Origin: a virus
Lineage: Duplodnaviria; Heunggongvirae; Uroviricota; Caudoviricetes
Virus record (IMG/VR): IMGVR_UViG_2693429706_000005
Length of the DNA stretch: 17,324 bases
Reading direction: 5' to 3' (one strand)
Shown here: positions 2,973-9,286 of the stretch, one piece after another
How positions within the stretch are numbered: position 1 is the stretch's first letter
How the letters are laid out: each line of letters opens with the position of its first letter
The notes under the pieces: generated by a model
What the model was told of the DNA's origin: nothing
What the model saw: only the letters and a program-made list of their open reading frames with translations
Database searches by the model: none
Made by a program: the position numbers and the translations under genes

Positions 2973-3135
2973 GATTCCTCCTTGCTGCCAGTCGCAACCA
3001 TTTTTTATCAACCAGGCTGGCGGTATATCCGAGCAGTGTTGGTATTTCGGAAGGCTTCAGCTCCGGTTTACGCTTACGACGATCTGGTACTCTGTAGATG
3101 TGTCCGTTCATGACACGAATAAGCGGTGTAGCCAT
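2965..3135 (-). CDS. ninE: NinE-like protein (56 aa)
   Basis: Minus-strand translation [56 protein letters not shown]; its ATG overlaps the ybcN stop; below the ORF-track size cutoff. Confidence 0.7.
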   Translation of the reverse strand: MATPLIRVMNGHIYRVPDRRKRKPELKPSEIPTLLGYTASLVDKKWLRLAARRNHG

Positions 3136-3590
3136 TACGCCTCCTGCTTGTCGCGGAGCAGCTGGAACTCGCAGCTCTGCGGAATAGTCAGGTGGCAGCC
3201 AATATTCACCGCCCAGGCTTCAACCTTACACAGGAAGACATACATCTCTCCGGTATCAAGATCGGAGGTATGGCGTAACGACTGGATAGTGGTGATATCA
3301 CCGGTTACGACATCAACCAGGTCTTTGGTTTCATAACCGAGATATGTGTGTTTGAGAGCATCTTTTACCCAAGCTGGAGTGGCGAACGTTTTACCCTTGC
3401 TGATGAGGTATTCACTGATTTCGCTGTACCACATGTGGCTGAGTGCATTCTGGGAAAGACTGCGTCTCTCGCGCCACGGTTTAAGCACCATGCGAAAGCA
3501 TTTGCCGTCCTCCAGATAAGGCTGGATCTGCCGACCGATAGCGGTGAAGTTACCGCGATGCAATTTGATACCATCTTGTGGGAGGTTCAC
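3135..3590 (-). CDS. ybcN: YbcN / NinB-family protein (151 aa)
   Basis: [55 protein letters not shown]... recalled as DLP12 YbcN; GTG start at 3588-3590 preceded by GGAGG. Confidence 0.85.
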
Positions 3591-3830
3591 GCTTCACCTC
3601 CGCAGAGGTCAAACGTTGGATGCAAGATATCGCAGGTGCATTTCTGCATCTGTGACTGGTTGAAAGGTGTTCTGATTGTCGTTTGCACTTTGAGTCCCCT
3701 CAAAGCGCAGAAGTCACCGGAGTTGTTCAGGCTCCGATGACATGATTATGGCGAGTTGATTATGATGAATCAATAGGTTCTTATGTCAAATGAACACTAG
3801 ATCCAAAGGAGGGTAACAATTATCATAGCC

Positions 3831-3848
3831 AATGAGATTAATCTCATT
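3831..3848. promoter_or_regulatory. Perfect 18-bp palindrome (candidate operator) just upstream of the 472-aa gene RBS
   Basis: aatgagattaatctcatt equals its own reverse complement; sits 7 nt upstream of the AAGGA ribosome-binding site (3855-3859) of the ORF starting at 3866. Confidence 0.4.
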
Positions 3849-3865
3849 TTTAATAAGGAAATTTC

Positions 3866-5284
3866 ATGAAATATTTCTCAACTGGTTTTTATGTTTCAAA
3901 CTCCACATCTCTAGCTGAGATCTTTAATGAATGTTTTTCTTGGGTAAACGACTCACCACATACAACTTTTATTCCAGCACAATTAGTATGTGATTATAAA
4001 AGCGAGGAGTACTTCATAGAGTCTAAAAATGAAAGAATTGATATAATAACTTATAAAAACAAAGATACTAGTTTAGGCTGTTTTAGGTATTCGAAAATAT
4101 CTGAGCCACACAAATGGGTAACAGATATTTCAATTAATAAAAATCTCAAAACTGATACCATGTGGATTCAGGTGGAATCTAGCGTTGTAAGCCAAGATGC
4201 AGCTTATCTAGCCCCGCAACCTAAGAAACCATTAGTTGTTATGAGATTGATTGATAAATTTTCTGGTGGTCTTGATGATATTTTCAAGGTGTCAGTCGAA
4301 CCTCATTCCTTAGATGATACTGATGAACATTTAAATATAGCAGCTAAAGTTATAAATGGTGAAACTGACAACAGACTACCAATAATATACGTTAGCTCCA
4401 AGTATTTTTTTAATGAACATGCTCACAATATCATCCCAGAACGCCTTGCAAGAAAGGTATGCGGATTAGCACATGTATTAATTGAGCCTAGCAATAGACT
4501 ATTTTCTATTAAGCTAAAAAATGAGACAAATGCTAAAAATGCCTATGCTGGTGCTGTTGGTATCTATTGGCCACGGGGTCAAAATATCAGTTTTTATCGC
4601 CGTGGTGAGAAAACCGCAAAAGAATTTGAAGATGAGTTATTTGATGATGTTGTAAGAGCTACGACTACAATGGCTCCTGTCTCAGATAGTGGATGGAGTG
4701 AGATACAAACCAGAAAAACGAAAGACTCTATTAACTCACTCAAAGAAAGAGGAGAATACACACGCGAACTGATGGCGCTTTACGAAGCCGATAATGTTGC
4801 GAAAGATGACCAAATAGAAGATCTTAAGCATAAGATCTCCTCTTTAGAGCACAGAGTACGCACTCTTCAATCACAAGCTTCAGCCCAAGGAAGCATTGTG
4901 CTTAATGCTGGTGAAGAGACTGATTTTTTTGATGGAGAAATCAAAAATATAATTATTGACGCACTAAAAACTGCCATAAAAAATAAAAATGAATTTGGTA
5001 GAAGCTACCATATCTTATCATCCCTAATTGCCAATAATGAATACAATAAAGAAACCGAGAGTCGCCGCCAATTACTTAAAAGGACTTTAACAGGTTACAG
5101 AAGCATGGATAGCGCAACACAAAGAAATTTAAAGGACTTAGGTTTCAGTGCGTCAAGCGATGGAAAACACTGGAAGTTAACATATAATGAAGACCCTCGA
5201 TATTCCTATATTTTACCTAAAACAGGAAGTGACCACAGAGGTTCTTTAAATGCTATCTCGGATATAGCAAACATTATTTTCTAA
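3866..5284 (+). CDS. Hypothetical 472-aa protein in an AT-rich island, family not recognised; candidate defence/moron gene
   Basis: Long uninterrupted ORF with AAGGA RBS 6 nt before the ATG; strongly AT-rich versus flanking phage genes; opposite strand to the surrounding early-right operon; central heptad-like stretch (…RELMALYEADNVAKDDQIEDLKHKISSLEHRVRTLQSQ…); no motif I can assign. Confidence 0.7.
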   Translation: MKYFSTGFYVSNSTSLAEIFNECFSWVNDSPHTTFIPAQLVCDYKSEEYFIESKNERIDIITYKNKDTSLGCFRYSKISEPHKWVTDISINKNLKTDTMWIQVESSVVSQDAAYLAPQPKKPLVVMRLIDKFSGGLDDIFKVSVEPHSLDDTDEHLNIAAKVINGETDNRLPIIYVSSKYFFNEHAHNIIPERLARKVCGLAHVLIEPSNRLFSIKLKNETNAKNAYAGAVGIYWPRGQNISFYRRGEKTAKEFEDELFDDVVRATTTMAPVSDSGWSEIQTRKTKDSINSLKERGEYTRELMALYEADNVAKDDQIEDLKHKISSLEHRVRTLQSQASAQGSIVLNAGEETDFFDGEIKNIIIDALKTAIKNKNEFGRSYHILSSLIANNEYNKETESRRQLLKRTLTGYRSMDSATQRNLKDLGFSASSDGKHWKLTYNEDPRYSYILPKTGSDHRGSLNAISDIANIIF

Positions 5285-5292
5285 TAAATTTC

Positions 5293-5318
5293 AATAGCAC
5301 TCACAAATGAGTGCTATT
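5293..5318. terminator. Bidirectional hairpin between the convergent 472-aa and 84-aa ORFs
   Basis: Perfect 11-bp inverted repeat aatagcactca (5293-5303) / tgagtgctatt (5308-5318) with loop caaa, 9 nt after the TAA of the 472-aa gene and 18 nt after the stop of the minus-strand ORF; flanks are AT-rich but lack a clean U-run. Confidence 0.55.
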
Positions 5319-5335
5319 GTTGCCACTGAATTACT

Positions 5336-5590
5336 CTATTTAAATTCAACTTTTATCCCTTTGTTTAGCAGGGCATCAGAAACTGCCTTTTTTGTAACAT
5401 TTATCCCTGCAAGCAATGCTTTATGCATTGGTCCCTTAAAAATTTCTACTTCTTCTTCAGTGAGTTTAGGCAATGTAATATAAATAACATCTTTCATCTG
5501 CTTGTTTTTATAGCATGAGCTTCTTGTGTGCTTACAATCGATATTTTCTTTATTTCCCAAAACATCATCCCCTTTATAATTCAGTTCCAC
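5336..5590 (-). CDS. Hypothetical small protein (up to 84 aa; true start uncertain), AT-rich
   Basis: ORF-track entry starts at a GTG with no RBS; internal ATGs at 5495-5497 and further downstream. C-terminal segment MHKALLAGINVTKKAVSDALLNKGI has a helix-turn-helix-like pattern. Lies downstream of ren in the same transcriptional direction. Confidence 0.35.
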   Translation of the reverse strand: MELNYKGDDVLGNKENIDCKHTRSSCYKNKQMKDVIYITLPKLTEEEVEIFKGPMHKALLAGINVTKKAVSDALLNKGIKVEFK

Positions 5591-5654
5591 ACATCAATTA
5601 TTTAGTTATCACGAATGTCGTAAAACTAAAATTAGTAACAATAATTGCTCATAC

Positions 5655-5942
5655 CTACTCTCTTCCATATAAAGCCAACACCCGCTTCATCGCGGCACTT
5701 TGACGACACTCCTTAAAAATCAGATTCGTGCTCACCTTTCCTTCCCGTTCTTCTCTGGTAGCGAACCGGTAATACACCGTTCGCCAGACCTTACCATCAA
5801 CGACCAGGATTCCTGACCGCGCCATTTTAGCCGCAGCCTGATTTATGCTGGTTACGGTTGCGCCTGTTACCGCGGCAACGTCCTGCGCACAGAAGTTCTT
5901 ATGAGTCCCCAGGTAATGAATAATTGCCTCTTTGCCCGTCAT
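5655..5942 (-). CDS. ren: Ren-like protein (95 aa)
   Basis: MTGKEAIIHYLGTHKNFCAQDVAAVTGATVTSINQAAAKMARSGILVVDGKVWRTVYYRFATREEREGK... recalled as close to lambda Ren; its start overlaps the P stop as in lambda. Confidence 0.8.
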   Translation of the reverse strand: MTGKEAIIHYLGTHKNFCAQDVAAVTGATVTSINQAAAKMARSGILVVDGKVWRTVYYRFATREEREGKVSTNLIFKECRQSAAMKRVLALYGRE

Positions 5943-7652: not shown

Positions 7653-8192
7653 TCATATTGCCCCCAGCATGGTGGTCACCATCGCCATTAATGGACCAGC
7701 CAGATCCGGGTCCACACGAAACATCGACACAATACCTTCACTCATTTCCTTCAGTTTCTGGTGGCGTGGTGCGTTGAGAATGACAGCCTGTTTTGCCTCA
7801 CTGAGTTCCTTTTCCATTTCAGCCAACCGAGTCATGAAGCTATCCTGCTCAACCAGGTAACCGCGATATTCCAGCGGTAGTACCGCCAGAATTGCCGGGG
7901 TCAGTTCACGCACGTTATTTCGGTATTTTTCAGAATCGAATTTGTTATCGAGGAAGCGGAACAGCTTCTGGCGTGCACGGCTGACATCATCAGGGAAATC
8001 GATGGTGCCGTCGCCCTGCTCCCGATACTCATTCACAATGAGTGCGGCAACGACATCCTGATTATCTACAGCCGACCAGGCGCGGACGGCATCACGGATT
8101 TTTTCGTGGCCTGGAGCTTGTTTTGTTTGAGAACGATTTATCACCGCAGTCGGAATAAATCCGCTAGTCTGTTGGTATGTAAGTGGTTGCAT
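7653..8192 (-). CDS. YdaT-like protein in the cII position (179 aa)
   Basis: Strong RBS AAGGAG 6 nt upstream of the ATG at 8190-8192; lies between the cro-like gene and O; segment ELTPAILAVLPLEYR resembles the conserved motif I recall in Rac YdaT. Family assignment is from memory. Confidence 0.5.
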   Translation of the reverse strand: MQPLTYQQTSGFIPTAVINRSQTKQAPGHEKIRDAVRAWSAVDNQDVVAALIVNEYREQGDGTIDFPDDVSRARQKLFRFLDNKFDSEKYRNNVRELTPAILAVLPLEYRGYLVEQDSFMTRLAEMEKELSEAKQAVILNAPRHQKLKEMSEGIVSMFRVDPDLAGPLMAMVTTMLGAI

Positions 8193-8261: not shown

Positions 8262-8492
8262 TTAAGCTGCGTTCTTTTCGGTGTGTGGAAACAACTTCGG
8301 AAGATCCGGGCGAATCTGGTATGCCTTCACAACTCCACCAGTAGCCGTAACAATGCTGCCGACATGTTCAGGGGATACCTTTGCTTTGTTGTGAAGCCAC
8401 TTATAGACGGCCTGCTGTGAAACTTCGCAGGCATCGCCTAGTTTCTTTTGTGAACCAACGATATTGATCGCTGTTTTGATTGCTGGGTTCAT
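8262..8492 (-). CDS. Cro-like / YdaS-like HTH regulator (76 aa)
   Basis: Small HTH protein (…GSQKKLGDACEVSQQAVYKWLHNK…) transcribed divergently from the repressor gene; GGAGG RBS before the ATG at 8490-8492. Confidence 0.75.
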   Translation of the reverse strand: MNPAIKTAINIVGSQKKLGDACEVSQQAVYKWLHNKAKVSPEHVGSIVTATGGVVKAYQIRPDLPKLFPHTEKNAA

Positions 8493-8596
8493 AACAACCT
8501 CCGTGGTTAATCCGAATAAAGATTAAAACTATGGTTGTTTTTAGTCAACAACCATTTTCGTTTGATGAAATAAAACCTTGGTTGTACATTTGATCT
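8493..8596. promoter_or_regulatory. OR-like divergent promoter/operator region (pR leftward, pRM rightward)
   Basis: Inverted repeat atggttgtt…aacaaccat (8531-8555); -35 TTGACT on the minus strand (complement of 8543-8548) for the cro side; -35 TTGATG (8562-8567), 17-bp spacer, -10 TACATT (8585-8590) ending 6 nt before the repressor ATG, suggesting a leaderless repressor mRNA as in lambda pRM. Confidence 0.6.
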
Positions 8597-9286
8597 ATGA
8601 AAACAACACTCTCAGAAAGACTTAAAGAAGCCAGATTAGCGCGAGGCCTTACACAAAAGGCGCTTGGGGATTTGGTCGGGGTTAGCCAGGCTGCTATTCA
8701 GAAAATCGAAACAGGGAAAGCTAACCAAACAACTAAAATCGTGGAGATCGCGAACGCTTTGGGTGTGCGCGCAGAATGGTTATCTTCTGGCGTTGGAAAT
8801 ATGTCAGACAGTACAGTGCAACCAATACAATCAACTGTCAGCCATTCCAAATACTTCAAAATTGACGTTCTTGATATAGAAGTCAGTGCCGGGCCAGGTG
8901 TAATCAACCGTGAGTTTGTAGAAGTTCTACGCTCGGTTGAGTACTCGTTTGACGATGCTCGTCACATGTTCGATGGCAGGAAGGCGGAAAATATCCGCAT
9001 CATTAACGTGCGAGGTGACAGCATGTCAGGGACGATCGAACCAGGTGACCTGCTGTTCGTTGATATCACTGTTAAATCTTTCGACGGTGATGGCATCTAT
9101 GCGTTTCTGTACGACGACACTGCCCATGTAAAACGTCTTCAAATGATGAAGGATAAGCTGCTGGTTATCTCTGATAACAAGAGCTACTCGCCGTGGGACC
9201 CGATCGAGAAAGACGAGATGAACCGGGTGTTCATATTCGGTAAGGTCATTGGAAGCATGCCGCAGACGTACAGGAAGCATGGTTAA
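8597..9286 (+). CDS. CI-type prophage repressor (N-terminal HTH, C-terminal LexA-like S24 autopeptidase), 229 aa
   Basis: N-terminus LTQKALGDLVGVSQAAIQKIETGK (HTH); C-terminal domain with GDSM serine motif and a downstream Lys (…HVKRLQ…), typical of RecA-stimulated self-cleaving repressors. Not lambda cI by sequence. Confidence 0.9.
   Translation: MKTTLSERLKEARLARGLTQKALGDLVGVSQAAIQKIETGKANQTTKIVEIANALGVRAEWLSSGVGNMSDSTVQPIQSTVSHSKYFKIDVLDIEVSAGPGVINREFVEVLRSVEYSFDDARHMFDGRKAENIRIINVRGDSMSGTIEPGDLLFVDITVKSFDGDGIYAFLYDDTAHVKRLQMMKDKLLVISDNKSYSPWDPIEKDEMNRVFIFGKVIGSMPQTYRKHG

Follow-up and report, generated by a model that had tools for sequence, protein, structure and literature searches.

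HEC-07 is a single-gene system reported to lower phage plaquing, and its domains are described as AdoMetDC-like, thioredoxin-like and, at the C-terminus, an RNase domain of the RelE family (Payne et al., bioRxiv 10.1101/2024.01.29.577857). The 472-aa candidate defence gene considered here (positions 3,866–5,284, plus strand) is a distant HEC-07-like gene. Similar to HEC-07, it is a single gene, resides in mobile elements and matches the PADLOC model (E=1e-9). However, the match is partial, covering residues 83–334 only, the length is 472 aa against the 553 positions of the model, and both a RelE-type domain and defence activity are only putative for this protein.

The cassette formed by the gene also resembles phage morons and defence cassettes of the P2, P4-satellite and lambdoid hotspots, being an autonomous low-GC unit of a predicted promoter, a gene and a stem-loop between conserved phage genes. 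It differs from them in having a conserved leader element, previously undescribed for such cassettes, which is the subject here.

Two described classes of elements are close to the one in this leader. The ompA and papA leaders of E. coli carry 5'-terminal stabilising stem-loops (Emory, Bouvet and Belasco 1992, as cited in the review PMC3997798); RNase E and RppH require single-stranded 5' termini, hence the stabilising effect of 5' structures (PMC3997798). The likeness is in the short hairpin at the predicted 5' end or a few nt from it, in the A/U-rich, single-stranded RBS region behind it, and in the absence of a trans factor, as any host with RNase E and RppH would suffice. The differences are that the start is only predicted here, that the stem is weaker (−5.6 kcal/mol), and that the arm sequence is conserved without covariation, whereas the ompA and papA stabilisers need no such conservation.

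The other class is represented by operators overlapping the start site, such as lac O1 at about +1..+21, and by the autoregulatory palindromes of toxin–antitoxin promoters. Here the common features are the conserved half-sites, the variable centre, the overlap with the predicted start, and a gene with a toxin-like domain. On the other hand, there is no cognate DNA-binding protein in or beside the cassette, the site is single, and the substitutions in it are asymmetric and compatible with RNA pairing.

The prophage and the candidate defence gene

The window, that is, the whole analysed stretch of 17,324 nucleotides (17.3 kb), contains a phage-82/DLP12-like lambdoid prophage with the early-right operon on the minus strand. 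The gene order is repressor, cro-like, YdaT-like, O, P, ren, ybcN/ninB, ninE, ybcO, rusA, ylcG, Q. By annotation, the S24/HTH repressor gene occupies positions 8,597–9,286 on the plus strand, and the cro-like gene (8,262–8,492), the YdaT-like gene (7,653–8,192), ren (5,655–5,942) and the orf33 remnant/ybcN/ninB (3,135–3,590) are on the minus strand. A run of 10 N, masked sequence or an assembly gap, is situated at 2,108–2,117, between an asnB-like gene (1–1,665) and the Q/late side of the prophage.

Between ren and the orf33 remnant/ybcN there is a low-GC island (about 3,762–5,650, 29–42% GC vs about 52% in the flanks), and the homology to phage 82 ends at about 3,761. The island is carried by 24 of 5,426 complete E. 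coli genomes. It contains the 472-aa gene, which is antisense to pR transcription of the early-right operon, and a convergent 84-aa ORF (5,336–5,590, minus strand, GTG start).

Two further sites are seen at and beyond the left edge of the island. A minus-strand promoter-like site at 3,762–3,789 (TTGACA-16-CATCAT, 10/12 matches, perfect −35) faces the orf33 remnant and ybcN/ninB. The insertion of the island replaced the −35 box of a putative nin-region promoter annotated in phage 82 (X92588), and this site may supply a new one. An imperfect inverted repeat at 3,677–3,716 (2,213–2,241 in L001), with 18-nt arms that are 78% complementary, lies upstream of orf33/ybcN, near the phage 82 region annotated as 'possible regulator-binding site', and varies between the E. 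coli copies.

The start of the 472-aa gene at ATG 3,866 is the one annotated by RefSeq in the identical E. coli locus. No Pfam or NCBIfam family was found for the protein, and its C-terminal 69 aa have no Pfam match; neither the sequence search nor the full-length fold search yielded a significant PDB match, and no DNA-binding domain was detected by Pfam, NCBIfam, the PDB sequence search or the fold search. We found 75 homologues, the family members being about 470 aa long and coming from many phyla. In the AF2 model (pLDDT 80.6), the last elements are a coiled coil and, after it, an alpha-beta-beta-beta-alpha unit (residues about 416–472) with invariant G426, F427, H435, D443, R445, Y446, K452 and S455. 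This unit matches only phrog_2053, a family of unknown function; we take it to resemble a small RNase-toxin-type domain, HicA- or RelE-like.

In P2-like phages, close relatives of the gene follow ogr, and in P4-like satellites at tRNA-Phe they adjoin the integrase. Others are found in an ICE, in the P/ren–ninB position of other lambdoid prophages, and behind a D5-type primase in further satellites. Since the post-ogr and integrase-proximal sites resemble defence hotspots known from the literature, the defence assignment is strengthened, and the label of a candidate defence gene seems reasonable. No further homologues were found in the phage collection, and the plasmids contain only distant ones (≤49% identity). 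Carriers of the gene family among the collected loci include L056–L063, L238 and L239 (P4-like satellites, integrase-proximal) and L231 and L076/77 (P2-like, post-ogr).

The palindrome and the conserved leader stem-loop

The sequence AATGAGATTAATCTCATT at 3,831–3,848 (plus strand) is, as originally predicted, a perfect 18-bp self-complementary sequence. It has one copy in the window, even with three mismatches tolerated, and is the longest perfect palindrome there, the runner-up having half-length 7. It can be read as a 7-bp stem (AATGAGA at 3,831–3,837 and TCTCATT at 3,842–3,848) with a 4-nt loop (TTAA, 3,838–3,841). The claimed distance of 7 nt from its 3' edge to the ribosome-binding site is also correct (AGGA at 3,856–3,859, within the Shine–Dalgarno sequence AAGGA at 3,855–3,859), and the distance to the ATG is 17 nt. 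However, the palindrome had been said to overlap the 5' region of the gene, which is true of the leader only: it lies outside the coding sequence.

Palindromes of half-length at least 9 were observed in 6 of 100 dinucleotide-preserving shuffles of the whole window and in 19 of 1000 such shuffles of the low-GC island. The 275-bp intergenic region gave none in 1000 shuffles; the weaker combination of a 7-bp stem and a 4-nt loop is found in 6–10% of its shuffles. Since it is that common, the case for more than chance comes from conservation and not from the sequence alone. Another perfect palindrome, ATTTCATGAAAT at 3,861–3,872, has the start codon of the 472-aa gene at its centre. It is common to the window and L054 and absent from other relatives, and is probably a chance product of AT-rich DNA.

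The upstream DNA was gathered from all reachable relatives of the 472-aa gene, and the leaders fall into two types, A and B. The type A leaders are homologous to the leader of the window, as demonstrated by the alignment, and contain the stem-loop in seven independent lineages. The hairpin-bearing relatives have 71–77% protein identity and belong to lambdoid, P2-like and primase-satellite elements.

In the lambdoid copy from Siccibacter (L006), both arms are identical to those in the window, and the loop is AAAC. Two P2-like lineages have a changed 5' arm and the intact 3' arm TCTCATT: AATGGGA with the loop ATAA in L076/L237, and AATGAGG with the loop ATAG in L231. In the remaining three lineages the 5' arm is AATGAGA and the change is in the 3' arm: TCTTATT with the loop ATAG in the Pantoea satellite L064/L211, TCTTATA with the loop ATAT in the satellite L221, and TCTAATT with the loop AAAA in the lambdoid L235. 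The centre of the loop is non-palindromic in every relative, the symmetry of TTAA being specific to the window copy. Thus the search upstream of homologues, suggested with the original prediction, retrieved the 7-bp arms in seven lineages, whereas the 18-bp symmetry is kept in no relative: what the lineages share is a 7-bp stem closed by a loop of 4 nt, and the perfect symmetry is particular to the window. The distance between the stem and the ATG is 16–18 nt in all hairpin-bearing sequences (10/10).

A degenerate stem-loop, or none, is seen in L054 (Edwardsiella, the closest relative, 81% identity), L225/L079, L226 and L224/L078, the last of which have lost the 5' arm through a deletion of about 10 nt. 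A compensatory G-C to A-U change initially considered for L224/L078 was rejected, given the deleted arm and an alternative hairpin that overlaps the predicted −10 hexamer. No stem-loop is present in the type B leaders (P4-like satellites, L234), and no conserved palindrome or stem-loop was found upstream of homologues at ≤50% identity. The type B satellite leader contains AAGGTAACCT. A second viral scan and distant blastn of E. coli genomes provided no additional hairpin-bearing lineage, and literature searches on the palindrome sequence and the protein accessions yielded nothing.

The mean pairwise identity over the seven hairpin lineages is 0.92 in the 5' arm and 0.86 in the 3' arm, 0.61 in the loop, 0.29 in the 4 nt before the stem, 0.63 in the −10-like hexamer and 0.49 in the 14 nt after the stem. 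Hence the arms are the best-conserved non-coding positions of the cassette. Four-fold degenerate sites in the genes of the same seven lineages are 0.435 identical, that is, near saturation. As the arm identity is well above this value, the arms are under purifying selection.

This comparison makes it quite improbable that the palindrome is a functionless product of AT-rich DNA kept by recent common descent, with 0.86–0.92 in the arms against 0.29–0.61 in the adjacent bases and 0.435 at the synonymous sites. What agrees with it is the frequency of the 7-bp stem hairpin in the shuffles, as given above, the loss of the element in several lineages, and the E. coli copies, which are too uniform to provide a test. 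The latter have four substitutions within 4 nt of the palindrome (A3827T, G3828C, T3849A, T3851C) and none inside it, the variation being too small for significance.

The predicted promoter and the fold of the leader

Upstream of the palindrome, a −35-like hexamer TAGATC (3,798–3,803, plus strand) lies within a conserved motif (C)ACTAGAT(C/T), and a −10-like hexamer TATCAT (3,821–3,826, plus strand) ends 4 nt before the palindrome. Exactly 17 bp separate the motif from the −10 hexamer in the window, L006, L076, L231, L235, L054 and L224, and TATCAT, TATTAT or TACCAT occupies the equivalent position in six lineages. In the window, L006, L076, L231 and L235, the hexamer is followed by 4 nt and then by the stem, so that the A of the conserved AATG is 6 nt past the hexamer. 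The motif and the hexamer persist in the stem-less L054 and L224. L064, L211 and L221 have a degenerate −10 box at the usual position and other −10-like hexamers near it.

As the conserved spacing of the motif would set the transcription start at about A3832, the hairpin is predicted at the extreme 5' end of the mRNA, the palindrome corresponding to positions −1 to +17 of the transcript. The candidate promoter TAGATC-17-TATCAT has 8 of 12 consensus matches and is not listed by the consensus scan, which prefers ATGACA-18-TATGAT at 3,737–3,766 on the plus strand, a site without conservation beyond the lambdoid copies. That promoter lies farther upstream, and if it is used, the hairpin would be internal to the mRNA.

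On the plus strand, 96.8% of the 63 stem cells are paired. Three independent one-sided transitions in the arms all lead to G·U pairs on this strand. In L076/L237 arm position 5 has gone from A to G, in L231 arm position 7 has undergone the same change, and in L064/L211/L221 position 4 of the 3' arm is U instead of C. Each transition would produce C×A on the minus strand, and the DNA loses its symmetry. The chance probability of the all-G·U outcome is about 0.125 (three events, about 1 in 8), and so the pattern is only suggestive of pairing in the plus-strand RNA. Pairing is lost through two changes, one giving G×A in L235 and the other affecting the terminal pair in L221. No compensatory double changes are seen in the stem across the seven lineages. 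Since covariation is absent despite the near-saturated synonymous sites, the arm sequence itself seems to be constrained, and this keeps a sequence-specific binder in play.

The predicted energy of the hairpin is −5.6 kcal/mol, and that of the whole leader in the relatives is −5.6 to −10.3 kcal/mol. The hairpin is closed in every predicted fold, and the Shine–Dalgarno sequence and the AUG are unpaired in both the MFE and the centroid folds. The leader as a whole folds no better than shuffled sequences (z = −0.13). No relevant family was found in Rfam 15, the best overlapping match being DUF2815 RNA (18.7 bits vs the threshold of 41.2, E=3.2).

These folds bear on the original suggestion that the palindrome has the geometry of either a dimeric repressor operator or a hairpin occluding ribosome access. 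Its location fits both an operator and a hairpin. However, occlusion does not agree with the folds, as the stem ends at 3,848, and the Shine–Dalgarno sequence and the ATG remain single-stranded in all of them. A weak intrinsic terminator or attenuator formed by the hairpin and TTTTT is suggested by UUUUUAAU, which directly follows the stem in the window. However, only two of the seven pairs are G-C, the terminator scan made no call, and the U-run is replaced by UUAUCAAU in the E. coli variants L074, L227 and L228, where the palindrome is intact, and by UAUAAUAA in L221. Given the G+C-poor stem, the unconserved U-tract and the free Shine–Dalgarno sequence and AUG, termination, attenuation and RBS occlusion were rejected as very improbable.

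The predicted start coincides with ATG 3,832–3,834, which could initiate a leaderless upstream ORF whose short peptide modulates the main start. Consistent with that, AATG is invariant in all hairpin lineages and retained in L054, its A is 6–7 nt past the −10 hexamer, and in L064 the stop codon of the upstream ORF overlaps the main ATG (ATGA). However, the length of this ORF varies (28 codons in the window, 6 in L006 and L231, 4 in L235, 12 in L064), its frame is not conserved and coincides with that of the main ORF in L221, no Shine–Dalgarno sequence precedes it, and the conservation follows the stem rather than the codons. A modulating role of such an ORF is therefore highly unlikely.

Stem-loop, operator or protein-binding site

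Our preferred, still tentative, interpretation is that the palindrome is the DNA image of a 5'-terminal mRNA stem-loop, AAUGAGA-N4-UCUCAUU, of a portable cassette, acting on mRNA stability or on the translation (RBS) context. The expression unit would run from the weak −35 box TAGATC through the 17-bp spacer and the −10 box TATCAT to a start near A3832; then would come the hairpin, with which the mRNA of the 472-aa gene begins, an A/U-rich spacer, the Shine–Dalgarno sequence and the ATG. In a lysogen, with the antisense pR operon repressed, this unit would express the 472-aa gene constitutively. The base-paired 5' end may hinder RppH and the 5'-end-dependent attack by RNase E, and the hairpin, at 16–18 nt from the ATG, may leave the RBS region open and fix its context. 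The amount of a potentially toxic protein would be set in this way.

The hairpin is kept across three unrelated kinds of mobile elements (lambdoid, P2-like and satellite) and across genera. As no trans factor is needed, a 5' stem-loop fits this portability between elements and genera. A point against it is that the hairpin is dispensable, being lost in L054, L225, L226 and L224 with the promoter region kept.

Should the element prove to be no more than a 5' stabiliser, the mechanism would be ordinary and only its setting new. A compact unit of about 100 bp (the weak −35 box, the −10 box, the 18-nt hairpin and the RBS), in which the hairpin is best conserved, accompanies the gene in its movement among three kinds of mobile elements, and the finding bears on how single-gene, toxin-like defence systems of prophages and satellites stay at safe expression levels. 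The hairpin is a small and concrete target for mutagenesis and a marker for recognising the cassette.

The main rival, possible although on balance doubtful, is a DNA operator, with the 7-bp half-sites AATGAGA and TCTCATT and 4 uncontacted bp between them binding a dimeric repressing regulator at about +1..+18. The half-sites are the most conserved non-coding positions, above even the −10-like hexamer; the spacer varies and covariation is absent, as if the sequence rather than the pairing were conserved. Further, the site overlaps the predicted start and is 4 nt downstream of the conserved −10-like hexamer, and dyad symmetry is present, perfect over 18 bp in the window and in the form of 7+7 arms in the relatives, with an asymmetric change in five lineages. 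The loss of the element in lineages where the promoter persisted would be expected of a dispensable regulatory input. However, the three arm transitions are asymmetric and compatible with RNA, and the distant family members have no conserved palindrome upstream.

The binder of such an operator would have to be a host factor conserved across the Enterobacterales or the 472-aa protein itself, the latter having no detected DNA-binding domain in the searches listed above. No family of neighbouring genes is common to the three kinds of elements with hairpin-bearing copies. A scan of the IMG/VR viral contigs for a regulon of AATGAGA-N4-TCTCATT yielded at least 120 stretches with random centres and unrelated flanks, the prophage itself excepted, the pattern being too short to be informative in such a scan. 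The ARG box, the KdgR box, and the CRP/FNR and Fur sites are not proposed here, as their likeness is limited to the outer AATGA/TCATT or their spacing is another.

The original prediction named the 84-aa product, CI and a Cro-like protein as candidate regulators. The 84-aa ORF has no family match in the searches made, including Pfam, NCBIfam and PADLOC, and only its C-terminal part of about 50 residues (from about residue 32–41) is kept in the lambdoid copies L054, L225 and L006. Homologues of this part adjoin the defence-family gene in lambdoid contexts only, including the hairpin-less L054 and L225, and are missing from the hairpin-bearing P2-like and satellite copies. Hence the presence of the ORF does not correlate with the hairpin, and it was rejected as a regulator; it may be a gene remnant. 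In one RefSeq record it is named 'phospholipase D-like domain-containing protein'.

Binding of CI or Cro was rejected as well, given the different type of their operators and the single copy of the palindrome in the window. The cI–cro intergenic region (8,493–8,596) contains a dyad ATGGTTGTT-N7-AACAACCAT (about 8,532–8,556) and further TGGTT-containing half-sites, likely the immunity operators of the prophage. With no co-travelling gene, an uncorrelated 84-aa ORF, unrelated CI/Cro operators and only scattered viral matches of the motif, a regulator encoded by the phage is unlikely. Thus, of the proposed control of expression, what stands is a selected cis element in the leader, with arms better conserved than the loop, the flanks and the synonymous sites, and not the phage-encoded factor.

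A sequence-specific RNA site is improbable, but it would explain the plus-strand G·U pattern together with the lack of covariation. In this case the 5' hairpin would be bound or cleaved by the small-RNase-like C-terminal domain of the defence protein or by a host RNA-binding protein, providing autoregulation through RNA in the manner of toxin–antitoxin systems. The element accompanies only the 472-aa gene family, the model of the protein ends in the alpha-beta-beta-beta-alpha unit with the invariant His435, and HEC-07 itself is described as having a C-terminal RelE-family RNase domain (bioRxiv 10.1101/2024.01.29.577857). However, the C-terminal domain here has neither a Pfam nor a PDB match, the PADLOC match does not extend beyond residue 334, several close relatives have no hairpin, and the binding is only putative.

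A related proposal is that the element, as a hairpin in RNA or as a dyad in DNA, is the recognition site of the defence protein itself, which would make the single gene a self-contained autoregulatory loop. The protein is considered as the specific binder because the arms are conserved beyond the −10 hexamer or the Shine–Dalgarno sequence, and without covariation. We regard this as unlikely; if true, the loop would resemble toxin–antitoxin promoters, travel with the gene among the lambdoid, P2-like and satellite elements and couple its expression to the activation state of the protein. Meanwhile, we class it as an element conserved in the leader of a mobile HEC-07-like cassette, and as a candidate for either the stabilisers or the operators.

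At the other end of the cassette, between the convergent 472-aa gene and 84-aa ORF, a stem-loop CAATAGCACTCA-caaa-TGAGTGCTATTG with 12-bp arms that are 100% complementary is situated at 5,292–5,319. There is no clear U-tract at it on either strand. It is likely to form the 3' end of the cassette transcript, and may act as a bidirectional terminator or as a stabiliser of the RNA 3' end.
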